Below, piece by piece: positions 2,035-62,973 of a stretch of DNA of 64,000 nt. The translations under genes were made by a program, and so were the position numbers. Below the pieces are notes generated by a model. It worked only from the letters and a program-made list of their open reading frames with translations. It made no database searches and was not told the DNA's origin. This DNA comes from Candidatus Nomurabacteria bacterium (GTDB taxonomy: Bacteria > Patescibacteriota > Minisyncoccia > Phycocordibacterales > UBA5272): contig JARIGQ010000004.1 of assembly GCA_029288775.1 (NCBI GenBank), positions 67,303-131,302 of the forward strand. The letters run 5' to 3'. Each line of letters opens with the position of its first letter. Position 1 is the first letter of the stretch.

Positions 2035-2211
2035 TACGCTACTTTATCATATTTTTGTAAAGAGTGAAATTGTGTATCTAAGTCATTTTCTGTTTCAGAT
2101 ACGAGGCGTGCCGCCTTTGTATAATGAGTTGGACAAATACGTATAATGACGAAGAGAAATACCGCACAATAAAGTAGATGTAATAGAAGGGGACAAAAGG
2201 GTTATATGGAG

Positions 2212-4107
2212 TTACATGAAAAAATGAAGGGGATTCACTTGTGGATGTCCATGAAAAACGACGCGCTTAATGCGTTCGCGCAATGTTGGGTTGTTGGCCC
2301 ATTCGCTTTCCTTAATGTGAATGAAGAGAAGCGTTACACCTCGCCCTGCCTCAAACCATTCGGTGACATAGGGTTCAAGTTCCTGCTTGATACGTGTACG
2401 CATGTCTTCAGGCATGTTTTCGAAGGAAGCTCGAATTACGGTGTAGTAAGGTGGTAAATGAAATTCGTCGCGTTCACGCAAGAGGGTGTCGTAGACTTCG
2501 CGAAAACTTGGCGCAGTAAGCTGCTTGATAATGGTCATTCCTTTGAGCCGAGTTTGGAGAATAAGACGATAGTCTTCGCCTTCCCGAACCTTCTCTGCCA
2601 TTTCTGTTACTAGATTGAGCACTTTTTCATCTGTACGATACTCAGGAAGGGAAAATAATGAATCAAGGGAAAGAATAATCACATGGTCTGCTTTATTCAC
2701 CATGTTGTGGGCCATTTCTGTGCCTATGAGCACGCCATAAGGAGCCTCCAACCACTCTTTGTATGTTTTCTTTACCTTAGTCCTCGTAGGTGTGCGTTCG
2801 CCATCAATGACAAAGAGAGGTATGCCTAAGCGCTTCAATTCTTCTTCTGCTCCAGTTGTAGCTATGCCTAATGTTTGCATGCGCCACCCTCCGCAATGTC
2901 TGCAGGAGAGTGTGGTATCTTCATGAAGCTGAACGATATTTTCGCATCCATGGCACACATAGGTGCGTAGTCCGGCAATTTTATGAAGTACATAGGGTCT
3001 ATTGCATGTCGGGCAGGTAAAGAGGGTGCCACAATCGCTGCATACAGTGGTAGGGTACATACCTTTTCGCTGTGCATAGAGAAAGATATGACCTTTGCCG
3101 CTTAGCTTGGCGTTATGTAGTATGGAAAGTGTTTGCCGTGAAAGATAGGGTGAGGCACTTTTATTTTCATCAATCATCGGCACCACAGCCAATTTCATAT
3201 CATTTCTAAACTGAAGCGGCATGATTTCGTGTGCTTCACGTGTTTTGTGAAGCATGTGTGCACGAAGTGAAAGCATATGCGAGCCTAGTATGCAGGGAAT
3301 AGCACTTCCTTTTGCAAGGTGCTCGAGCACGACACGTTGGTCGTACCCATGATCTCCATGAGTAAAGTAGTAGTGGCTGTGTTCGCGTTCAATAATGACT
3401 AATCCTAAATCTTTTCGAAGCCATGGAAGAAGAGAAGGTGTGGAGAGAATAAGAAGGGCGTGGGTATTTTTCGATAATGCTTGTAAGTTTTCCTTGTACT
3501 GTTTGTCGGTAAGATTGCTGTGAAGGGTTACAACGTATTCGTCTATTCCGCGGGAGAGTTCATCTTTGGCATATTCAAGGTCGGTGATGGTGGGAAAGAA
3601 CATCACCAATGATTTCTTTTTGGAAAAAGATTCGCGTATGGTGGTTTTATAGCGCGTAAGGCGTTCTTTGTAGCTTTGTTCAAGTAATAAAAGTTCAAAC
3701 CCTTTTGTTTCTTCGGGAACGGAAATTGCTGTAAGGCCTTCAAATGCTTTTTCCGAAAGAAGATCATAAATAATCGATCCTAAAGGAATTATAAGATATG
3801 AGGAAACATATGAAAGCGCATTCCAGAGCTTTGGATGGAGAAATCCTTTGGTATGGATTTTGGAAATTTTTTTCACATTAAAGGACGCATGCCGTAGCGA
3901 CTGCTTTTCCTCTTCTGCTTTTTGGGAATCAATGACAAGTGCCCGTGCTACTCGTCGTTTAATGGTTACTTCGGCTAAATCTCCTGCATTTACATCATCT
4001 TTACCAAAATAGGTAAGTTCCTCATACGGAATACCGGAAGCAAGCGGTGCTACAGTAAGGACTTTCATCAGCCAAGTATAGCAAGATATCATACGCTTCG
4101 CTTTCAA
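2212..4107 (-). CDS. priA: Primosomal protein N' (PriA) homolog with degenerate ATPase motifs
   Basis: Aligns to PriA 3'BD, helicase core and Cys-rich zinc-binding region (CSDCG...CPTCN...CHGCEN...CRHCGG). There is no GxGKT P-loop, and DEEH is replaced by EREH. Confidence 0.8.
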   Translation of the reverse strand: MKAKRMISCYTWLMKVLTVAPLASGIPYEELTYFGKDDVNAGDLAEVTIKRRVARALVIDSQKAEEEKQSLRHASFNVKKISKIHTKGFLHPKLWNALSYVSSYLIIPLGSIIYDLLSEKAFEGLTAISVPEETKGFELLLLEQSYKERLTRYKTTIRESFSKKKSLVMFFPTITDLEYAKDELSRGIDEYVVTLHSNLTDKQYKENLQALSKNTHALLILSTPSLLPWLRKDLGLVIIEREHSHYYFTHGDHGYDQRVVLEHLAKGSAIPCILGSHMLSLRAHMLHKTREAHEIMPLQFRNDMKLAVVPMIDENKSASPYLSRQTLSILHNAKLSGKGHIFLYAQRKGMYPTTVCSDCGTLFTCPTCNRPYVLHKIAGLRTYVCHGCENIVQLHEDTTLSCRHCGGWRMQTLGIATTGAEEELKRLGIPLFVIDGERTPTRTKVKKTYKEWLEAPYGVLIGTEMAHNMVNKADHVIILSLDSLFSLPEYRTDEKVLNLVTEMAEKVREGEDYRLILQTRLKGMTIIKQLTAPSFREVYDTLLRERDEFHLPPYYTVIRASFENMPEDMRTRIKQELEPYVTEWFEAGRGVTLLFIHIKESEWANNPTLRERIKRVVFHGHPQVNPLHFFM

Positions 4108-4169
4108 AGAAGAGACTTAAAAAAGCTTGAAATATAAGGATAATTTAGATTCAAATACCGCTTATTGTG

Positions 4170-4178
4170 TGCTACACT
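4170..4178 (+). promoter_or_regulatory. Extended -10 (TGcTACACT) 9 nt upstream of the mreB paralog 1 ATG; predicted leaderless
   Basis: TGnTAnnnT pattern; no SD before the ATG at 4188. Confidence 0.4.
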
Positions 4179-4187
4179 TGTAGGTAC

Positions 4188-5201
4188 ATGGGATTTTTCT
4201 CCAAAAAGCTTGGTATTGATTTAGGTACCGCAAACACACTCGTGTATGTTCCACAAAAAGGGGTGGTACTTGTTGAGCCTTCTGTAGTTGCGGTGTCGGA
4301 AATCGATAATCGCATTATGGCGGTGGGTAATGAAGCTAAGGATATGATTGGTAAGACACCGGACTCGATAGTTGCGTACCGTCCCATGCGTGATGGAGTG
4401 ATTGCAGACTATCGTGTTACTGAGGCCATGCTTCGTTATTACATCAATAAGGCGCTTAAGGGTTTCAATCTTTTTAAACCAGATGTGATGGTTTCTGTGC
4501 CGGCCGGTGTGACATCAACTGAGCGCCGTGCCGTTATCGAAGCCGCACTTAAAGCGGGAGCTCGTAACGCGTATGTAGTGAAGGAGCCTATTCTTGCGGC
4601 AATTGGTGCCGGTATTCCTATTCATGAAGCGCAAGGGCGCATGATTGTAGATATTGGAGGAGGGACGACAGACGTCGCGGTGATTTCGCTTGGAGGTATT
4701 GTGTGCAGTACATCCGTAAAGTGTGCTGGTAATAAAGTCGATCAGGCGATCATTGATTACATTAAGAAAACGTATAATTTGGCAATTGGCGATCAAACAG
4801 CAGAAGAGATCAAAATCAAAATTGGGTCTGCACTTCCACTAGAAGAAGAGCTTTCCATGAAAGTGAAGGGTCGGGATTTTATTGCAGGCCTTCCGCGTAC
4901 CGTAGAGATTCGAACTAACGAAATAGTTAAGGCAATTGATAAGGAGTTGCGCATCATGATCAAGGCGATTAAGGATGTGCTTCAGGAAACACCGCCAGAA
5001 TTGGCGTCAGACATTATCGATAACGGCATCATCATGTCTGGAGGAACCTCCATGCTTCGTCATTTCCCGGATTTGGTGGAACGTCGCACTGGGGTAAAGG
5101 CGGTACTTGCCGAAGATGCATTCTATTGCGTAGCAAAGGGAACAGGGACGGCGCTTGAACATCTTGATACCTACAAGCGTTCCATATTTGCGAAGCGATA
5201 A
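4188..5201 (+). CDS. mreB: Rod-shape determining actin homolog MreB (paralog 1)
   Basis: GIDLGTANTLVYV phosphate-1 motif and DIGGGTTD; start chosen at MGFFSKK. Confidence 0.9.
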   Translation: MGFFSKKLGIDLGTANTLVYVPQKGVVLVEPSVVAVSEIDNRIMAVGNEAKDMIGKTPDSIVAYRPMRDGVIADYRVTEAMLRYYINKALKGFNLFKPDVMVSVPAGVTSTERRAVIEAALKAGARNAYVVKEPILAAIGAGIPIHEAQGRMIVDIGGGTTDVAVISLGGIVCSTSVKCAGNKVDQAIIDYIKKTYNLAIGDQTAEEIKIKIGSALPLEEELSMKVKGRDFIAGLPRTVEIRTNEIVKAIDKELRIMIKAIKDVLQETPPELASDIIDNGIIMSGGTSMLRHFPDLVERRTGVKAVLAEDAFYCVAKGTGTALEHLDTYKRSIFAKR

Positions 5202-8357: not shown

Positions 8358-9623
8358 ATGCGACAATCCCAGCTTTATACCAAAACTCGAAAAGAAGCTC
8401 CGGCTGATGAAATTGCTAAAAATGCGCAGTTGCTCATTCGTGCAGGTTTTATCAATAAAGAAATGGCGGGAGCCTATGCTTATCTACCGCTTGGATTGCG
8501 CGTGCTCAATAAAATCATGGATGTTATTCGTGATGAAATGAATACCATCGGGGGACAGGAAATTACGCTTCCCGCGCTTCAAGAACCAGAAGTCTGGGAA
8601 AAGACGAATCGTTGGAGTGAAGAGGTTGTCGATGTGTGGTTCAAAACGGAACTCAAGTCTGGCGCTAAAGTCGGTTTAGGATTTACCCATGAAGAGCCGT
8701 TTACGCGCATGATGAAGCAGTTCATTAGAAGTTATAAAGATCTGCCGGTATACGCCTACCAATTTCAGACAAAGTTTCGCAATGAAACTCGAGCAAAGTC
8801 AGGGATTATGCGTACGCGTGAATTTATTATGAAAGACCTTTATTCTTTCTGTCGTACCAAGGAAGATCAGGAGAAGTATTATGAAGTAGTAAAGGAAGCA
8901 TACGTAAAAATTTTCAATCGTTTAGGTATTGGTGAAAAGACGTATGTAACATTCGCTTCAGGGGGCGTTTTCTCAAAGTATTCGCATGAATTCCAAACTA
9001 TTTGTGATGCAGGTGAGGATGAAATTTATATTCATGATGGTAAGCGTATTGCGATTAATAAAGAAGTGATGCTACCTGAAGTGCTTGCTGATTTGGGTGT
9101 AAAGCAAGAAGATCTTCGCGTGGAAAAAGCATCCGAAGTTGGAAATATTTTCAACCTTGGAACAAGATTTTCGGAAGCTCTTGAACTTTCCTATCAAGAT
9201 GAAGAGGGGATAAGTCAGCCTGTCTGGATGGGATCCTACGGTATCGGACCTGCACGTGTTATGGGGGTGATCGTCGAATTGTTATCGGATGCAAAAGGGC
9301 TTGTGTGGCCGGCTGAAGTAGCGCCATTTTCTGTACATTTGATTTCTCTTTCTAAAGACAAGGATTCGCAAGCAGCAAAGACAGCAGAGGAGTTGTATAC
9401 AAAACTAACAGACGCGCATGTGGAAGTGCTTTTTGATGACCGTGAGGAATCTGCCGGAGCTAAGTTTGCCGATAGTGATTTAATTGGTATTCCTATGCGA
9501 GTCGTGGTGTCTGACAAGTCATTGCAGGCAGGAGGTGTAGAAATCAAGGAACGTACAAGTGATACTTCGGAAATTGTAACGGTAGAACAGTTGCTGAAGT
9601 CGTTTGCTCAGAATTGCGATTAA
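8358..9623 (+). CDS. proS: Prolyl-tRNA synthetase, short form without a large editing insertion
   Basis: Class II ProRS motifs and anticodon-binding domain; 421 aa. Confidence 0.9.
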   Translation: MRQSQLYTKTRKEAPADEIAKNAQLLIRAGFINKEMAGAYAYLPLGLRVLNKIMDVIRDEMNTIGGQEITLPALQEPEVWEKTNRWSEEVVDVWFKTELKSGAKVGLGFTHEEPFTRMMKQFIRSYKDLPVYAYQFQTKFRNETRAKSGIMRTREFIMKDLYSFCRTKEDQEKYYEVVKEAYVKIFNRLGIGEKTYVTFASGGVFSKYSHEFQTICDAGEDEIYIHDGKRIAINKEVMLPEVLADLGVKQEDLRVEKASEVGNIFNLGTRFSEALELSYQDEEGISQPVWMGSYGIGPARVMGVIVELLSDAKGLVWPAEVAPFSVHLISLSKDKDSQAAKTAEELYTKLTDAHVEVLFDDREESAGAKFADSDLIGIPMRVVVSDKSLQAGGVEIKERTSDTSEIVTVEQLLKSFAQNCD

Positions 9624-9629
9624 ATAAAA

Positions 9630-9662
9630 ACAAAAAGCCCGCAATCCTGCGGGCTTTGTGCT
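9630..9662. terminator. Bidirectional intrinsic terminator
   Basis: AGCCCGCAATCCTGCGGGCT hairpin followed by TTGTG and preceded by an A-run. Confidence 0.65.
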
Positions 9663-9667
9663 TCCTC

Positions 9668-10174
9668 TCATAGAGGGTAGTGAATCCCTGCCAACCTGAA
9701 GCCGTCTTCTAGTTTGGCGAAGTGAAAGCGGTTGGGAAGGTGAGTTCCCCATCCGCTCCACCTTACCTTGCCTCGGTAACAGGCGGAAGGAAGGCGGATC
9801 TGGAGAGTGAACATCTCTCCGTAGCGGGTGCTATTGAGATTTTGGAGGAGAATTCTCTCCCATGTTGTGCAGTTGCGGATGAATGCACTAGCTTCTATCT
9901 CCTGCAGCTTTTTCTCTTTATTGTTGGTCTTCAGTGGAAAAAGGTCGCTGAGATGTTTCTTTTCAGCCATCACAGCAAGTGTTCCCTCGATCCATGGGTG
10001 GGCTCCCCCAATGTCTTTCCACGTTCTTTCGAAGCCATTCTGGTTCTTCAGCATGTCGCTCAGCATGGCCGCAAGGCCTTCGACTTCCATTTTAGCGTAG
10101 GGACGGGAGTCCATGACAGTTTCTTTCAAGAACAATGTTGGCGTAATAATGTAATATTTGGTCTTAAAAGTCAA
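9668..10174 (-). CDS. Hypothetical protein, higher GC. The track start is a TTG; the true start may be an internal ATG near 10114 or 10090.
   Basis: Long ORF with coding-like composition; no recognisable domain. Confidence 0.45.
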   Translation of the reverse strand: MTFKTKYYIITPTLFLKETVMDSRPYAKMEVEGLAAMLSDMLKNQNGFERTWKDIGGAHPWIEGTLAVMAEKKHLSDLFPLKTNNKEKKLQEIEASAFIRNCTTWERILLQNLNSTRYGEMFTLQIRLPSACYRGKVRWSGWGTHLPNRFHFAKLEDGFRLAGIHYPL

Positions 10175-10211: not shown

Positions 10212-11261
10212 ATGTTCGAGCGCCTCTATCGCCAATTTTCCAACGATATCGGGATTGATCTTGGTACCGCAAATACACTCGTCTATCTCCGCGGACGAGG
10301 TATTGTCATCAATGAGCCCTCCGTTGTTGCACTTAATCAAAAAACCTCGCGTGTGGTAGCTGTTGGTGCCGAAGCTAAAGATATGATGGGGCGCACCCCA
10401 TCTCACATTCGCATTGTGCGACCGCTTGTGGATGGTGTGATTTCTGATTATGAGGTAACCGAAGAAATGCTGGCGTATCTTATTAATAAAGCCAACGAGG
10501 TAGATAAAAAACTTTTTCGTCCGCGAGTTGTAGTGGGTATCCCCGTCGGGATTACCAACGTTGAAATGCGCGCAGTGTACGACGCTGCAAAGTCAGCAGG
10601 TGCTCGCGAGGTCTATATTGTCGAAGAGCCGATGGCTGCAGCAATCGGTGTGCATATGCCCATTCATGAGCCTGTAGGAAGCATGATTGTCGATATTGGC
10701 GGCGGAACTACCGACATTGCGGTAATTGCTCTTGGTGGCGTGGTGCGCTCGAAGTCGCTTAAAGTTGCGGGTGATAAGTTAACGCAAGATATCATCAGTT
10801 ACATGCGTGATGAGTTCAAAATGCTTATCGGAGAAAAAACTGCAGAACATATCAAAATGACTATTGGAAGTGCGCTTCCAGACGATGAAGGGGAAGAGCT
10901 TTCTGTAAAAGGGCGTGATTTGGTAACCGGGCTTCCACGAGAAGCTATTATTACCGATGTTGATATTCGAGAGGCTATGTATGCTTCCATAGCTCAACTT
11001 GTAGAAGCTATTCGTGAAGTTCTGGAAACGACACCTCCGGAGGTGCTTGCTGATATTATGCATAAAGGTATGACTATTTCCGGAGGGGGTGCGCTTATCA
11101 GGAATCTTCCTAAGCTTTTGGAGATGCAACTTAAGGTTCCTGTAAGTGTCGCTGATGATCCACTCACTGCTGTTGCGCGAGGTACGGGAGTTATACTAGA
11201 ACATATCGATACGTACGAAGACGTTCTCGTTCAAAATACAGATGAAATATCGTTCCGGTAA
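10212..11261 (+). CDS. mreB: Rod-shape determining protein MreB (paralog 2)
   Basis: GIDLGTANTLVY and DIGGGTTD motifs. Confidence 0.9.
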   Translation: MFERLYRQFSNDIGIDLGTANTLVYLRGRGIVINEPSVVALNQKTSRVVAVGAEAKDMMGRTPSHIRIVRPLVDGVISDYEVTEEMLAYLINKANEVDKKLFRPRVVVGIPVGITNVEMRAVYDAAKSAGAREVYIVEEPMAAAIGVHMPIHEPVGSMIVDIGGGTTDIAVIALGGVVRSKSLKVAGDKLTQDIISYMRDEFKMLIGEKTAEHIKMTIGSALPDDEGEELSVKGRDLVTGLPREAIITDVDIREAMYASIAQLVEAIREVLETTPPEVLADIMHKGMTISGGGALIRNLPKLLEMQLKVPVSVADDPLTAVARGTGVILEHIDTYEDVLVQNTDEISFR

Positions 11262-21298: not shown

Positions 21299-21529
21299 AT
21301 GATCAAGGAATTTTTACTCAGACAAGCAGTTAAGCATGGTACGAAAGACCTTCCTAAAGAGCAGGCAGAAATGCTTCAAAAAGCGGTAGATAAGAATCCC
21401 GAACTTTTTGGAAAAATAGCCAAGGAAATCGAGGAGCTCAAAAAACAGGGTAAGCCGGAAATGTATGCCGCGCTTGATGTGATGAAAAAGTATCAGAAAG
21501 AATTGCAGCAAGCGATGACTGCAAACTAG
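21299..21529 (+). CDS. Hypothetical small helical, lysine-rich protein
   Basis: ORF only. Confidence 0.4.
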   Translation: MIKEFLLRQAVKHGTKDLPKEQAEMLQKAVDKNPELFGKIAKEIEELKKQGKPEMYAALDVMKKYQKELQQAMTAN

Positions 21530-21637
21530 TAAAAGTATTTCATCTGCTTTGTCGCTACGGAATTTTTCTCAGTTAATGTAGACCCATCTAGGTCTCCTTC
21601 GAAAAATTCCTAGACTTCTCGGATCCAAAACACTTTT
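21529..21637 (+). ncRNA. Structured ~110-nt repeat element, copy 1 (candidate novel ncRNA or 3'UTR structural element)
   Basis: About 80% identical to 33822-33934; internal perfect 10-bp inverted repeat GGAATTTTTC/GAAAAATTCC; outer stem with compensatory change. Confidence 0.5.
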
Positions 21638-21660
21638 CCAAGTTTGTCGGACAGAGAATG

Positions 21661-21692
21661 AAAAAAGCCACGCATGAGTGCGCGGCTTTGAC
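21661..21692. terminator. Intrinsic terminator downstream of repeat copy 1
   Basis: GCCACGCA-TGAG-TGCGCGGC hairpin followed by TTTG and preceded by an A-run. Confidence 0.55.
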
Positions 21693-21743
21693 CAAGAAGA
21701 AATCAGTGTACAAACTTCTATGATGGAAGAAAGATGAAAAGCG

Positions 21744-21752
21744 TGATAAGAT
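21744..21752 (+). promoter_or_regulatory. Extended -10 TGaTAAGAT, 9 nt before the ychF ATG
   Basis: TGnTAnnnT. Confidence 0.4.
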
Positions 21753-21761
21753 CGGAAGACT

Positions 21762-22859
21762 ATGTCTCTCTCTATCGGTATTGTCGGTCTTCCAAACGTG
21801 GGCAAGTCCACACTTTTTAATGCGCTTACCAAGAAATCTGTTCCTGCGGACAATTATCCATTTTGTACAATCGATCCGTCCGTGGGGATTGTGCCCGTGC
21901 CAGACCCTCGCCTTGAAGTGCTTTCGAAGATGTCAGGATCCAAAAAAATTATTCCGGCAGTCGTTGAGTTTGTTGATATTGCAGGACTCGTAAAAGGCGC
22001 AAGCGAAGGTCAGGGGCTCGGCAATCAATTTCTTTCTCATATTCGCGAGACTGATGCGATTGCAGAAGTGGTGCGTATCTATGAAAACGCCGATCTTATC
22101 CATGTGGAAGGTACAGTAGATCCGCTTCGGGATATCGATATCATCAACATGGAGCTTATATTGGCAGATATGCAGACTGTTGAGAAGCGATCGCAAACCA
22201 TTGGTCGCGATGTAAAGCAGGGGAAGCCCGAAGCAATCAAGCTTTCAGGTATTTTGGATACGCTTAAGAAAACGTTTGATGAAGGCAAGCTTGCCAACTC
22301 TGTATCGTTTGATGAAGAAGAAATGAAACTGGTGCGCGATCTTCATCTTATTACGATGAAGCCTTTTTTGTATGTACTTAACAAACAGTCAGGTGGGAAG
22401 AACCTAGACGAGATCAATGATGAGCGTTTTCAGAAGCTCATGCAGTATTTCAAGGATAATATGTATCACTATGTCATCGTGGATGCCAAGATCGAAGACG
22501 AACTTAAGGAATTTGAAGGTGAAGAAAAAGACTTGATGCGCAAAGAAATGAATGCGCACGATAACGGTGTGGATACTCTTATCAAGGCTGGATACGATTT
22601 GCTTGGACTTGATACCTATCTCACGACAGGGGAGATGGAAACCCGCGCGTGGACTATCAAAAAAGGCTCTACTGCTCCCCGTGCTGCAGCTGCCATTCAC
22701 ACAGACTTTGAGCAGAAGTTCATTCGCGCCGAAGTGGTTGCCTATGATGACCTAGTCGCTGCAGGTTCAATGGCTGAAGCGCGAAATAAAGGAACACTCC
22801 GTACGGAAGGTAAGGAATATATAGTAAAAGACGGCGACGTTATAGAATTTAAGATATAA
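21762..22859 (+). CDS. ychF: Ribosome-binding ATPase YchF (Obg-family GTPase)
   Basis: GIVGLPNVGKSTLFNALT G1 motif, TGS C-terminal domain. Confidence 0.93.
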   Translation: MSLSIGIVGLPNVGKSTLFNALTKKSVPADNYPFCTIDPSVGIVPVPDPRLEVLSKMSGSKKIIPAVVEFVDIAGLVKGASEGQGLGNQFLSHIRETDAIAEVVRIYENADLIHVEGTVDPLRDIDIINMELILADMQTVEKRSQTIGRDVKQGKPEAIKLSGILDTLKKTFDEGKLANSVSFDEEEMKLVRDLHLITMKPFLYVLNKQSGGKNLDEINDERFQKLMQYFKDNMYHYVIVDAKIEDELKEFEGEEKDLMRKEMNAHDNGVDTLIKAGYDLLGLDTYLTTGEMETRAWTIKKGSTAPRAAAAIHTDFEQKFIRAEVVAYDDLVAAGSMAEARNKGTLRTEGKEYIVKDGDVIEFKI

Positions 22860-27891: not shown

Positions 27892-28272
27892 ATGAACAAT
27901 CATCTCGTCATTAGAGTTGGTGACCGCGAAACAAAGGTGGAGTATGTGGTAGATGACCACGCTCTCGTCTCGCATGTGCATCCATTTGGCTTACGACACA
28001 TTGAAGCCGAAGGGATGAATACAGTTGCCGGGTCCAAGTTCGTCGACGGCATTATGTATACACTTGAATTCGTTTCGCTTCACGATCGCGTGCCTACTCA
28101 CTTCAAGCTTATTACGCCACGATATGCCAGTTGGATAGGCGAAGCTATTGAGCGAGCTTCTTATACACAGTTCTATACAAAAGGTGCACCGGTGAGTGTT
28201 ACACTTATTGGTACCGATCCTTCTTTAGGCTATGCAAGACATACGCAAACCATATTCTCGTTCAAGGTCTAA
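27892..28272 (+). CDS. Hypothetical protein
   Basis: ORF only; TATACT 6 nt upstream. Confidence 0.4.
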   Translation: MNNHLVIRVGDRETKVEYVVDDHALVSHVHPFGLRHIEAEGMNTVAGSKFVDGIMYTLEFVSLHDRVPTHFKLITPRYASWIGEAIERASYTQFYTKGAPVSVTLIGTDPSLGYARHTQTIFSFKV

Positions 28273-29659
28273 CCGTGGCCGCGAAATTCGCGAGCGTGTA
28301 GAGGAGTTTGAAAAACATGAATACGAGGAAGATAATGACACAGGTCCCGTAGAGATTCCTGTTAAAAGGAAATTTCGTGAACGTCGCAACATCGAACACA
28401 TGGAAATGTTTCCTTCCCGCGGAAGGCGTGCTTATGATGTAGACGAAAAGGACGAAGCCCCAGCTGGGCGCAGGGATACTGATGGCGTGGTATATCGCGA
28501 TCCCCGCACTCGCTATGTCCATAAAAAGCAATCCGTAGGGACGCTCGCTTTCATTCTTACTCTTCTTTTAGTATTGGTAGGCGGAAGTTTGCTTACTTTC
28601 GTTTTTAATCGGGCGACTATCACGATTGTTCCCAAACATCAGGACTTGAGTGATTTTAGAAAGACAATTACTTTTGCCCAGGCTGGAGTGGATACGGATA
28701 CAACGGTACTTTATACACTTGCTACAACCTCTATTTCCAAAACAAAGGAACTTGCTTTGAGTGATCAGAAGTCTGTACAGGCAAAAGCAAGTGGAAAGAT
28801 TATTATTTATAATAACTATTCTTCAGATTCACAGCGTCTTATCAAGAATACTCGCTTTGAATCTTCTGCTGGAAAGATTTATAGAATTACCCAGTCTGTC
28901 ACTGTTCCTGGAAAAACTGCTTCCAAGCCAGGGAGTGTGGAAGTAACCGTATACGCAGACAGTGTTGGTCCTGAGTACAATAGTGCGCCTACCGACTTTA
29001 CTATCCCAGGATTTAAGGGGACACCACAATTTACGGGATTTTATGCGCGTTCCAATGGAGCAATCGCAGGAGGCGCTTCAGGAAATGTGTCCTCGGCATC
29101 GCTTGCAGATATTAATGCGGCTAAGGATGAACTTACGATTGAATTGGCTCAAGAGATAAAAGATGAGCTTGCCAAGAAAAAAATGGATGGATACGTAGGA
29201 TTATATAGTGCTATTGATATTCAATATGCTGATAATGAAAATGACCTGTTGGCAGGAAACACTTCTACGTATAAAATGACCGCTACTGGTTATTTGATGC
29301 TTGCCAAAGGGGATGAGCTTGCCGCTCAAGTGGCCGAAGATGTGAGGGATTACACACATCAACCGGTGCGTCTGGATTATACCGATCGCATGACTTACAC
29401 CAAGAAGGACACTGATAATCTCTCAGAGGTACAGAGTTTGGAAGTCCTGGCAGAAGGGTCTCCTCGAGTCGTCTTTTTGACGGATGAGGAAGCGCTCAAA
29501 TCGCTTGTTGCTGGCCGGCCACGGTCGGACTTTAATACCCTTATGAAAGGCGTGACTTCTATTGAAAGCGCTGAGATCAGTTTCTCTCCTATGTGGCTGT
29601 CTGCTTTCCCTCAAGAGACTTCCAAAATCCATATTGTAGAATCTTTGCCAAAGCGGTAA
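28232..29659 (+). CDS. Hypothetical membrane-anchored protein. It has a basic cytoplasmic N-terminus, one TM and a large extracytoplasmic domain; the start is uncertain.
   Basis: TM segment LAFILTLLLVLVGGSLLTFVF; no recognisable domain. Confidence 0.45.
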   Translation: MQDIRKPYSRSRSNRGREIRERVEEFEKHEYEEDNDTGPVEIPVKRKFRERRNIEHMEMFPSRGRRAYDVDEKDEAPAGRRDTDGVVYRDPRTRYVHKKQSVGTLAFILTLLLVLVGGSLLTFVFNRATITIVPKHQDLSDFRKTITFAQAGVDTDTTVLYTLATTSISKTKELALSDQKSVQAKASGKIIIYNNYSSDSQRLIKNTRFESSAGKIYRITQSVTVPGKTASKPGSVEVTVYADSVGPEYNSAPTDFTIPGFKGTPQFTGFYARSNGAIAGGASGNVSSASLADINAAKDELTIELAQEIKDELAKKKMDGYVGLYSAIDIQYADNENDLLAGNTSTYKMTATGYLMLAKGDELAAQVAEDVRDYTHQPVRLDYTDRMTYTKKDTDNLSEVQSLEVLAEGSPRVVFLTDEEALKSLVAGRPRSDFNTLMKGVTSIESAEISFSPMWLSAFPQETSKIHIVESLPKR

Positions 29660-33413: not shown

Positions 33414-33821
33414 ATGAGTACAGAAACAAAGAATCGCTATATCGAAGCTGTTGGCCGTCGCAAGACCGCTATTGCTCGCGTGCGTATCACTCCTTCAACC
33501 AAGCCTTCCTTTATCGTAAATGACAAGGATGTAAAGGAATACTTTACGACAAATGATCTTCAGGTACTTGCACAGGAAGCATTTTCAAAGTCAGACATCG
33601 GTGAGAAGTTTGCAATTACCGTTAAGGTAGTAGGAGGTGGCATTCATGCACAAGCTGAAGCTATTCGTCATGGACTTGCTCGTACGCTTGTAGAGCGTGA
33701 TGAACAAGTCAAGAATACCTTGAAGAAGCTTGGGTTCCTCAAGCGTGATTCACGACAGGTGGAACGCAAGAAGTTCGGACTCAAAAAAGCTCGCAAGGCT
33801 CCAACCTGGTCTAAGAGATAG
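33414..33821 (+). CDS. rpsI: 30S ribosomal protein S9
   Basis: C-terminal KKFGLKKARKAPTWSKR. Confidence 0.95.
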   Translation: MSTETKNRYIEAVGRRKTAIARVRITPSTKPSFIVNDKDVKEYFTTNDLQVLAQEAFSKSDIGEKFAITVKVVGGGIHAQAEAIRHGLARTLVERDEQVKNTLKKLGFLKRDSRQVERKKFGLKKARKAPTWSKR

Positions 33822-33934
33822 TAAAACTGTTTCATCTACTTTGCCGCTACGGAATTTTTCTCAGTTAATGTAGTTCTAGCTGCATCTCCTTCGAAAAATT
33901 CCAAGGCTTCGCGTAGCTAAAACAGTTTTCCTGC
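33822..33934 (+). ncRNA. Structured ~110-nt repeat element, copy 2
   Basis: Same element as 21529-21637; nested stems AAAACTGTTT/AAACAGTTTT, GCTACG/CGTAGC and GGAATTTTTC/GAAAAATTCC. Confidence 0.5.
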
Positions 33935-33965
33935 TCTTAACGCGCAATTAATTATTTTTTATAGT

Positions 33966-33998
33966 ACAAAACCGCTCGCAAGAGCGGTTTTGCTTTAG
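33966..33998 (+). terminator. Intrinsic terminator downstream of repeat copy 2
   Basis: ACCGCTCGCAAGAGCGGT followed by TTTGCTTT. Confidence 0.65.
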
Positions 33999-38053: not shown

Positions 38054-38124
38054 GCAATTACCTTACAAGTTTTCTAGAATGAGGCTTTCTGTTGTTCGTT
38101 GTTCTAACAAAGAGGAGAGAGGTG

Positions 38125-38823
38125 ATGTCTGATGAAATTATCGTTCTACAGTTTTTTCCCGAAGGAGAAAAGAGGTACCGTTTTGAGCCCAATTGGGTAT
38201 CGCGGTACTTACAGGTTTCCACATTCGAGCTTAACGCATTGTTTGAGGTTGAGATCTTTGGTTATCGCTTGCGATACCGTTTTTCCCCCAATTCGCACAG
38301 CGACTGGGTGTGTCCACACTCGTGGTATCGCTTGAATTCCGCGGTTGGAAACCCCGATGCCTCGGATTATCTTCGTCCACTCAATTCGTGGATACTCAAA
38401 GACCCGGTAGGTTTCATTCCGTCTGAAGAGGATCTTGTAGAAGAAACAACCTGGCGCAGAACGCTCCCGAAGCGCTTTCGTGTCGGCCGCTGGCAAGAAG
38501 CTACTTTCCAGCAGGTGCGTGCGTATTATGTTCGCGAAGCTTGTCGAGAAATGGTGCAATACCAGCGGTTGTTATTGGAGTGGTCGCACGTGGGCCGGAA
38601 ACAAGACCAGGAGGAATGGAGTTTCGGCTCTCCTCAGAACAGAGCTACCTTCCGTAGAAACATGAAACTACAACAGAAGAATGTTCTCGAGGCCAAAAGG
38701 AAGCTGGAGTTTCTTCAGCAAAATCATGCACCTAGTTTCCTGACGGCGTATGCGAGTGGTCAGCTTCTGCAGGAAAGGCAAATCCTAGACAAGATGCACG
38801 AAGCGCTGCTTGTTTGCCTGTGA
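38125..38823 (+). CDS. Hypothetical protein, higher GC, strong SD (AAGAGGAGAGAGG)
   Basis: ORF with SD; no recognisable domain. Confidence 0.5.
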   Translation: MSDEIIVLQFFPEGEKRYRFEPNWVSRYLQVSTFELNALFEVEIFGYRLRYRFSPNSHSDWVCPHSWYRLNSAVGNPDASDYLRPLNSWILKDPVGFIPSEEDLVEETTWRRTLPKRFRVGRWQEATFQQVRAYYVREACREMVQYQRLLLEWSHVGRKQDQEEWSFGSPQNRATFRRNMKLQQKNVLEAKRKLEFLQQNHAPSFLTAYASGQLLQERQILDKMHEALLVCL

Positions 38824-62409: not shown

Positions 62410-62973
62410 TCAGAAGAATCTCCTGACCACTGCACTTGCAACTGCTTCGATGCGGAGCTTGTCCGGATCGGGATAGATCTTTTTAAACTTTTTGTTTGCA
62501 GGAATAAGCACTGGCTTGCCTCGTTCGATATTGAAATATTTGAGCGTAAATTCATCTTCAACTTGAGCTACAACAATATCTCCCTTGAGCGGTTCGCGCC
62601 CGCGCTCCACGACCACCAGATCACCATCATAGATTCCTGCGTCTTTCATTGATTCCCCTTGCACTTCAAGAAGGAAGGTTCTTCCCTTTCTTCGCATAAG
62701 CATCCTATCCAATGAGACTTTTTCAATTTCTGCGGTTGCATCTTCTGTAGTTGGAAATCCTGCTTGAATATTTCCAAGTTTCATGAATCCTCCTACCATC
62801 CCCATAACAAGCCTCCGTCCTTCTTTAATGAGTACTCCTTCATCAATCAAACGCTTCACTTTATAAGCAACAGTATTTTTGGATTTCACTCCAAAGAGTT
62901 TCTTCATCTCCTCGAAAGTCGGAACTCGTTCATGTTCGTCGTAGAAAGCGATAAGTTTGTCTGTTTCTGTCAT
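62410..62973 (-). CDS. lexA: LexA repressor
   Basis: N-terminal wHTH, S24 peptidase GESM Ser and Lys dyad. Confidence 0.92.
   Translation of the reverse strand: MTETDKLIAFYDEHERVPTFEEMKKLFGVKSKNTVAYKVKRLIDEGVLIKEGRRLVMGMVGGFMKLGNIQAGFPTTEDATAEIEKVSLDRMLMRRKGRTFLLEVQGESMKDAGIYDGDLVVVERGREPLKGDIVVAQVEDEFTLKYFNIERGKPVLIPANKKFKKIYPDPDKLRIEAVASAVVRRFF

Follow-up and report, generated by a model that had tools for sequence, protein, structure and literature searches.

The window, by which we mean the whole 64,000-nt stretch of DNA analysed here, contains three members of a previously undescribed family of hairpin repeats, each about 135 nt long, in Paceibacterota. The element is a real feature and lies outside the known RNA families. 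An earlier sequence-only reading had taken it for no standard RNA and had proposed a check against Rfam, and Rfam 15 returned 0 matches in the whole window at the gathering threshold, while permissive searches (E up to 10) around the first two copies returned only noise, at 8–27 bits against gathering thresholds of 37–90. A literature search found no account of this family, or of similar dispersed repeats, in candidate phyla radiation bacteria. We lean towards regarding the element as a non-autonomous, recombining palindromic repeat of the MITE/REP/ERIC kind that is co-transcribed as a 3' hairpin.

The analysis began from a same-orientation repeat that the sequence-only reading had described as two copies of about 110 nt, roughly 80% identical, each with its onset at a stop codon. 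The direct repeat is the longest of the window, with 84% identity over 113 nt (21527–21639 vs 33819–33931); its two copies have an exact 24-mer in common, for which 100 shuffles gave 0 matches, and both fold better than shuffled sequence (z of −3.9 and −6.1). Their onsets are indeed stop codons, the TAG of a 76-aa ORF at 21527–21529 and that of rpsI at 33819–33821. Number and length had been underestimated: the hairpins measure about 125–138 nt, reaching to 21522–21646 and 33812–33939, and a third copy is present on the minus strand. The features of the window are as follows.

21299–21529, plus strand: gene upstream of copy 1, encoding a conserved 76-aa protein, with its TAG in the 5' arm of the basal helix.
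21522–21646, plus strand: copy 1, full hairpin (covariance-model match 21516–21653, 121.6 bits), with an inner helix of type I.
Within 21522–21646, plus strand: basal helix of copy 1, CAAACTAGTAAAAGT / ACTTTTCCAAGTTTG.
21559–21568 and 21601–21610, plus strand: inner helix of copy 1, GGAATTTTTC / GAAAAATTCC.
21664–21689, unstranded: terminator after copy 1, a GC-rich hairpin between an A-run and T's, 17 nt past the copy.
33414–33821, plus strand: rpsI (ribosomal protein S9), gene upstream of copy 2.
33812–33939, plus strand: copy 2, full hairpin (covariance-model match 33808–33944, 119.3 bits).
Within 33812–33939, plus strand: basal helix of copy 2, TAAGAGATAGTAAAACTGTTT / AAACAGTTTTCCTGCTCTTA.
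33968–33996, plus strand: terminator after copy 2, canonical, AAAACCGCTC-GCAA-GAGCGGTTTT then GCTTT, 28 nt past the copy.
2070–2205, minus strand: copy 3, diverged (covariance model, 74.7 bits).
2212–4107, minus strand: 631-aa ORF, gene upstream of copy 3 and of def and fmt.

The inner stem GGAATTTTTC/GAAAAATTCC, which had been called perfect in both copies, is flawless in copy 2 as well (33851–33860/33893–33902); in copy 1 (21559–21610) it encloses the conserved loops TCAGTTAATG and TCTCCTT and an apical hairpin, AGACC/GGTCT. The basal helices of copies 1 and 2 take in the stop codon and last codons of the upstream gene. In copy 2, the last rpsI codons, AAG AGA, together with the TAG at 33819–33821, form part of the 5' arm, and in copy 1 the element's own TAA (21530–21532) is in frame after the TAG of the 76-aa ORF, whose product has 387 homologues, with 78–93% identity among the 120 matches listed. 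The claim that no ORF spans the element held, the mechanical minus-strand ORFs at 21569–21853 and 33668–33835 merely clipping its edges. A canonical terminator had been read after each copy, which is right for copy 2 and wrong for copy 1, where the plus strand at 21664–21689 ends in a mere UUUGACC and the long T-run and a G.U pair are on the minus strand. This terminator is orthologous to one that lies 6 nt past the stop codon in the empty allele of a relative (L050), the element being wedged in the window between the stop codon and that same terminator, and the terminator of copy 1 is ancestral.

Copy 3 has a core hairpin running from about 2188 to 2088 and keeps the conserved blocks CATCTACTTT and CGCCTCGTATCTGAAACA. 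The 631-aa ORF upstream of it had no Pfam match, and its TAA (2212–2214) lies 34 nt ahead of the CTACTTTA anchor of the copy; there is no terminator 3' of the element, and def begins 35 nt downstream. The copy is inverted along with its gene at a place where GC skew has the same sign as in the rest of the window, and targeting to a replication strand is not favoured by this single case, as copy 3 follows the gene strand with the sign of the skew unchanged.

Judged by the relatives of GrpE, the window belongs to Candidatus Paceibacterota/Parcubacteria; an exact look-up of its rpsI product gave no record. A search for further copies had also been proposed, and a covariance model, built from 21 copies, found them in Paceibacterota contigs. 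With filters off, it placed exactly 3 copies in the window, and across the 18 searched sources 27 copies scored at least 68 bits, including the 3 of the window; these represent about 19 distinct sites, and the sample was gathered in part by means of a sequence pattern and one syntenic region. One relative (L006) has 2 copies, one of them with a wholly different yet complementary inner helix. The pattern, a degenerate two-gap expression made from the conserved blocks and run on metagenomes, returned 15 loci, 13 of them true; the other loci, L034 and L035, were chance matches that neither the profile nor the covariance model confirmed. An exact 20-mer from the conserved core had 0 matches in the genome and metagenome collections, the family is missing from the majority of the related contigs and genomes sampled, and viral contigs, phage records and plasmid records held no match to it.

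In consensus, the element folds as one imperfect hairpin, about 125–138 nt long, whose five helical segments are accompanied by three conserved internal loops rich in pyrimidines; from base to apex it is composed as follows.

Basal helix: about 9–14 bp, locus-specific, without consensus sequence.
Conserved A/T helix: AAAATTAYTT / AARCAATTTT, with a fixed A.C mismatch.
Internal loop 1: CATC / TCTA.
Short helix: TAC / GTA.
Internal loop 2: TTTGTC / CTCCTC.
Inner helix, type I, AT-rich: GGAATTTTTCT / AGAAAAATTCC.
Inner helix, type II, GC-rich with a CCYC bulge: GGAGCCTCGCGTGC / GCACGCACTCC.
Internal loop 3: TCGTCAA / TCTCCT, conserved.
Apical hairpin: 5 bp, with a free loop.

Covariation across the 27 copies is overwhelming. 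The G-C to C-G swap that the sequence-only reading had noticed in the outer stem is present, at pair 8–106, and its view that the stems are maintained by compensatory change is borne out by both-side changes in 33 of 37 pairs of the 27-copy alignment; the Y-R pair of the A/T helix, for example, switches cleanly, being U-A in 12 copies and C-G in 11. Ninety percent of the cells assigned to helices pair, vs 33–45% when partners are slid by 1–3 columns, a level that 0 of 500 shuffles reached, and covariation was likewise strong in a structure-blind MAFFT alignment. Conservation is higher in the loops than in the stems, and both types of inner helix carry identical loops. This is the pattern expected of a functional RNA or of a protein-binding site, and it counts against a repeat of the MITE/REP kind. 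By inspection, we saw no sigma-70 promoter on either strand of the element, no ORF, and no K-turn or loop-E in the loops.

All of the assessable copies are placed at the end of a gene and in its orientation. A co-oriented long ORF lies upstream in 25 of 25, with a stop codon that ends 5–34 nt before the CTACTTTG anchor and that falls, in all 25, inside the 5' arm of the lower stem or basal helix. Core genes recognised upstream through Pfam encode S9, S7, S18, L15, L10, KhpA, MreB, DnaJ and SSB, others a Mur ligase, ribulose-phosphate epimerase, an AsnS/AspS-type synthetase, PBP and YchF, and inspection of translations added EF-G and a DEAD-box helicase; genes for ribosomal proteins precede 5 of the approximately 19 distinct sites. 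A terminator 3' of the element is not a family-wide feature, as terminators built of an A-run, a GC stem and a T-run occur within 45 nt in about half of 21 copies, and the remaining copies are intercistronic, 35–44 nt ahead of def, rplL or the next gene. Where there is a terminator it is always 3' of the element (0 copies lie downstream of theirs). The spacing to the following gene varies more and is far wider than that to the stop codon, so that the element can be said to hug the upstream gene. The upstream stops are TAA or TAG in 25 of 25, often the TAA of the element's conserved 5' end. A signal specific to release factor 1 was weighed on this account and set aside, the absence of TGA being marginal at best, since the element often supplies TAA and the background count is crude: a rough ORF call has TGA closing 14 of the 60 ORFs in the window that reach 100 aa, some of them probably spurious, and a rough estimate puts the absence at p of about 0.04 if TGA makes up about 15% over 20 sites.

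These positions bear on whether the element could be an independent small-RNA gene, yielding a discrete transcript of about 110–150 nt from its own promoter to its own terminator. Copies 1 and 2 are each followed by a terminator-like hairpin, as such a gene would be, but the onset lies on the upstream stop codon or a few bases from it, leaving no room for a promoter, and promoter-like matches in a scan were not above the shuffled expectation. The lack of a terminator at about half of the copies, the 35–44 nt that separate some of them from the next cistron and the lack of an Rfam match add to the case, and we consider such a gene very improbable. Among the options that had been offered for the element at the outset, a stand-alone small RNA is accordingly the unlikely one, a 3'UTR structure describes its position, and a REP/MITE-like element fits best.

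The same positions speak for a different possibility, a host cis-acting RNA module, in which a hairpin in the 3'UTR or between cistrons would be under selection for what it does to the message and dispersal would be secondary; it might act as an RNase III processing or stabilising signal as in phage T7, or by hiding the stop codon until the ribosome arrives. The complete agreement with gene orientation, the embedded stop codon, the placement of copies always upstream of terminators, and loops that stay invariant under covarying stems and two helix types all favour such a module, as do the 5 of about 19 sites that follow ribosomal-protein genes and others that follow EF-G, SSB and KhpA. In an orthologous pair at MreB, moreover, the element is about 88% identical, even though changes at synonymous sites have come close to saturation and homology is lost in the spacer downstream. 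Sense orientation, a position within the transcription unit, invariant loops and the conservation at MreB are thus the pointers to an RNA-level role, and the element may plausibly serve the host in the processing of mRNA or in the termination of translation.

The basal helix bears on both levels. Own 3' flanks pair with own 5' flanks at 7.4 of 9 basal positions, vs 2.9 of 9 across loci, and the 5' side is often the native coding end of the gene, as with S9 (...SKR-stop), SSB (...DDIPF-stop), S7 (...HFAW-stop) and PBP (...PPDR-stop). At PBP, the coding end reads CCGTTAG, and its complement, CTAACGG, is missing from the empty allele and present in the filled one, where it takes the place of just as many letters of flank. 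Two filled alleles differ there by a synonymous GAC/GAT change that has its counterpart, G/A, in the 3' arm, a compensation that a host RNA module would also account for. From these alignments, the 3' arm of the basal helix reads as a locus-specific inverted copy of the gene's end. The pairing is almost purely Watson-Crick (675 of 763 paired cells). Two positions are fixed, one as U.G and the other as A.C; with these set aside, the gene strand has G.U in 12 cells and A.C in 19. Each strand has one fixed wobble and a balanced remainder, neither shows a G.U excess, and the fold of the minus strand is stabler than that of the gene strand. Near-pure Watson-Crick pairing, a stabler antisense fold, an inverted copy of the flank and turnover between relatives are signatures of a palindromic repeat at the DNA level, and the step that the sequence-only reading had taken from the swap to selection on RNA structure is unsupported in their light. 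The absence of a gene-strand G.U excess and the stabler minus-strand fold likewise weigh against a host RNA module.

Turnover is evident between close relatives. The rpsI site is filled in the window and empty in L006; the site after the 76-aa ORF is filled in the window and L063 and empty in L046, L047, L050, L051, L052, L064 and L065; the dnaJ site is filled in L006 and L036 and empty in the window; the AsnS and PBP sites are filled in L052 and/or L055 and empty in L051 and L050; and the ychF site is filled in L055 only. L050, L051 and L052 have an identical 75-aa protein despite differing in filled and empty sites. Filled AsnS alleles have gained one codon and a stop supplied by the element (KPK-stop has become KPKN-stop), truncated copies occur in L044 and L032, and the contig of L063 breaks off within a copy. 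At rpsI, dnaJ, the 76-aa ORF, AsnS, PBP and ychF, the empty alleles were inspected for a palindrome that might have served as insertion target and show only ordinary terminators or nothing. In four relatives, contigs break shortly ahead of grpE, and we considered the repeat as the cause; the contexts proved unrelated and without copies. Filled and empty sites in very close relatives, and the absence of the family from most sampled genomes, mean that the element is dispensable at any given gene, and this, along with the truncated copies and the swapping of the inner helix at orthologous sites, is evidence against a host RNA module. Taking both sides together, we give that explanation some weight while regarding it as unlikely.

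The inner part of the element is also mobile between copies. The type of inner helix differs between orthologous copies at four sites, and apical hairpins are common to non-orthologous copies. At the site after the 76-aa ORF the junction register is identical in both filled genomes while the types of inner helix differ, from which it follows that the inner module was exchanged after insertion. Such modular exchange, together with the purely Watson-Crick pairing, the fixed mismatches and loops, a distal helix that varies and is always paired, and the position at the 3' end of an ORF in ORF orientation, is compatible with a site comparable to attC or to REP/REPIN with RAYT, formed by folded single-strand DNA and served by a dedicated recombinase or transposase encoded elsewhere; the conserved mismatches would then mark the strand and variation of the distal helix would be tolerated. 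Sites of the attC type are likewise imperfect palindromes, of 57–141 bp, that follow an ORF at its 3' end and are oriented as it is; they act as folded single strands and have a conserved basal part with unpaired bases and a variable, paired distal part. They differ in that attC sites belong to cassette arrays with intI, whereas here there are no arrays, and the neighbours are housekeeping genes (ribosomal, chaperone and cell-wall) in the usual, conserved operon order. No integrase or Y1 transposase lies in the window. The core sites also disagree, the element ending in AAAATTAY ... RCAATTTT where attC has RYYYAAC ... GTTRRRY, and against a REP-type site stand the lack of a conserved 5' GTAG and arms that are not palindromic themselves, as REP units are. 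We therefore judge a dedicated recombination site of this kind improbable.

The MITE/REP/ERIC reading, which we prefer, agrees with MITEs in that the element is short (about 135 nt), non-coding and multi-copy (27 copies), is polymorphic for presence and absence, and has terminal inverted repeats, the whole element being an inverted repeat with sub-terminal arms AAAATTAYTT / AARCAATTTT. It departs from them in its flanks, which are complementary, that is, inverted (the 7.4 of 9 own-flank pairs given above), and comparisons of filled with empty sites gave no direct target-site duplication. The window genes are all housekeeping, with no transposase, recombinase, integrase or Y1 transposase/RAYT among the 64 kb, and about 0.8 Mb of loci contained no half-elements flanking genes. 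That no transposase, direct duplication or parent insertion sequence turned up in this material counts against the MITE/REP reading, and the complete co-orientation and embedded stop codon are left unexplained by purely selfish DNA; we know of no ordinary MITE or REP family reported to be wholly co-oriented with genes or to embed their stop codons. The element is not itself an intrinsic terminator, its stems being AT-rich and its 3' flank not U-rich.

The closest comparisons are with ERIC/IRU and Correia (NEMIS) elements, MITE-like repeats of enterobacteria and Neisseria measuring about 100–160 bp, which are likewise non-coding imperfect palindromes of similar size, dispersed in intergenic DNA and variable between strains, and which are co-transcribed as long RNA hairpins. 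ERIC/IRU and Correia elements are reported to influence how stable mRNAs are or how they are processed. They are found in either orientation and at differing distances from genes, and those of the Correia family duplicate a TA target. There is no sequence similarity between them and the present element, which by contrast keeps its orientation and embeds the stop codon in 25 of 25 assessable copies, has inverted rather than direct repeats as flanks, and conserves its internal loops rather than its termini. The REP/BIME/REPIN repeats of proteobacteria are likewise extragenic and palindromic and occur in 3'UTRs and between cistrons, where REPs protect the upstream mRNA from 3' exonucleases. REP units, however, are 20–40 nt long, palindromic, marked by a 5' GTAG and tied to RAYT, whereas the Paceibacterota element is one hairpin of about 135 nt with three loops, its arms are not self-complementary, there is no conserved terminal GTAG, and the helix 5 position is C or G. 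To our knowledge, no ordinary palindromic repeat combines sense orientation, a stop codon in the stem, a basal helix that is an inverted copy of the gene end, and swappable modules.

Under the preferred reading, the element would be transcribed with the upstream gene, judging by its position, to give a long hairpin in the 3'UTR or between cistrons, and its complementarity would be made and maintained mostly in the DNA, by copying from arm to arm and from one copy to another. Template switching within a strand, or gene conversion, may transfer the coding-side arm onto the free 3' side, with changes being tolerated, under template switching, on the non-coding side only. Such a transfer would yield both the inverted gene ends and the scarcity of wobble pairs. 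Template switching during replication creates, corrects and extends hairpins in single events and is commoner in highly transcribed DNA, and the quasi-palindromes that it produces show compensatory changes made in one step and arm identity extended into the flanks (PMC8794818, PMC3820800). The inverted gene-end copy and the Watson-Crick-only pairing of the Paceibacterota element resemble these products. Template switching is, however, a mutational process and not an element family, and it leaves the loops, the dispersal and the orientation unexplained; it should also erase the conserved mismatches and loops, which persist nonetheless and so must be selected.

The invariant loops and strict orientation may accordingly be kept by selection, either through a putative trans-acting protein for propagation or through what the hairpin does to the host transcript. 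The likeliest such effect would be at the 3' end of the message, as a barrier to 3' exonucleases or a substrate for RNase III, roles suggested by the position ahead of terminators and by the long duplex. The intercistronic RNase III signals of phage T7 are orientation-dependent hairpins with conserved internal loops that leave a protective 3' hairpin on the upstream message; they are an analogy of possible mechanism only, with no sequence relation. A terminating ribosome would have to melt the basal helix, and termination may be modulated in this way, by analogy with E. coli REPs that lie less than 16 nt from a stop codon. According to the part of PMC12306157 that cites Liang et al. 2015, such REPs modulate termination, and in E. 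coli a stop codon is no more than 15 nt away from many REPs, which there lower translation of the upstream gene. By the same analogy, the 3' hairpin may tune termination, 3'-end stability or the separation of cistrons.

A more far-reaching proposal is that the element represents a new class of gene-end element, a modular hairpin that settles exactly on stop codons in sense orientation, copies the last codons inverted into its basal helix, and persists by coupling termination to the fate of the message in genomes whose set of RNA-decay functions is minimal. We put this forward as speculative and rather doubtful. If it were true, the novelty would lie either in the mode of propagation, through inverted copying of flanks and exchangeable inner modules, or in an RNA function coupled to termination.

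For the genomes that carry them, the repeats have direct consequences, as they break assemblies (L063), yield spurious antisense ORF calls and can alter gene ends, as at AsnS, which has acquired an extra codon and a different stop. The genomes of candidate phyla radiation bacteria are very small and densely packed. If the hairpins originate at the DNA level, they would provide a clean natural system for studying how template switching builds hairpins beside coding sequence; if they originate at the RNA level, they would represent a portable means of setting 3'-end stability or termination efficiency in the highly expressed operons of minimal cells, namely those for ribosomal proteins, EF-G and chaperones.

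Two reading frames border or cross copy 1 of the hairpin element, the palindromic repeat that abuts stop codons in Paceibacterota:

21299-21529, plus strand: ORF of 76 aa, directly before copy 1
21569-21853, minus strand: mechanically called ORF, overlapping copy 1 and its terminator

The product of the 76-aa ORF is a genuine, strongly conserved small protein of Paceibacterota. Its homologues number 387, are about 75 aa long (identity of 78-93% among the 120 matches listed) and are each adjoined by a DsbA-like gene; the product matched no Pfam family. At locus L052, in one close relative, the DsbA-like gene is separated from the 75-aa homologue by an inserted gene with bAvd / 23S_rRNA_IVP domains (9615-9989), which is absent from the window and the other relatives; bAvd is an accessory protein of diversity-generating retroelements. 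On the 3' side of the 75-aa ORF, minus-strand ORFs of 71-122 aa were called by gene callers in the spacer of several relatives (the P0001 contig and loci L050 and L058). Their equivalent in the window, with its overlap of hairpin element and terminator, is probably spurious, and the convergent 122-aa spacer ORF of L050 looks like a genuine gene.

Elsewhere in the window, the following features were recorded:

4167-5201: full-length mreB paralogue
10212-11261: second full-length mreB paralogue, 5 kb from the first
27892-28272: ORF of 126 aa, upstream of infA
28232-29659: ORF of 475 aa, upstream of infA
38092-38823: ORF of 243 aa
52918-53538: ORF of 206 aa
62339-62398: inverted repeat of 29 nt, nearly perfect; 2 nt separate its arms, and complementarity is 76%
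62410-62973, minus strand: Peptidase_S24 (LexA-like) gene

The inverted repeat lies immediately 3' of the Peptidase_S24 gene. None of the four ORFs matched a Pfam family. The two before infA, of 126 and 475 aa, are probably genuine lineage-specific genes, since their place and sizes are conserved in relatives (loci L050-L052 and L059). After the second mreB come mreC and a PBP gene; the hairpin element is found 3' of mreB in relatives, and none follows mreB in the window.

Between the PBP and methyltransferase genes, the spacer spans 611 nt in L052 (7458-8070), which include the hairpin element, a terminator and about 400 nt of unexplained sequence, versus 33 nt in L051 (8453-8487). Two partial copies, both truncated with chiefly the 3' half kept, were found at other loci:

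L032, 1053-1118: 44 nt 3' of a complete copy
L044, 1141-1282: after a GC-rich hairpin

Past the hairpin's 3' end, the AsnS copy of L052 (3880-3925) and the ychF copy of L055 (11900-11945) have about 35 nt in common, reading AGATTTT..GAAAGCTTAAG.TA.AAATAAAT. As this extension is common to copies at different genes, the unit that is mobilised or converted is therefore not confined to the palindrome and can reach beyond it.
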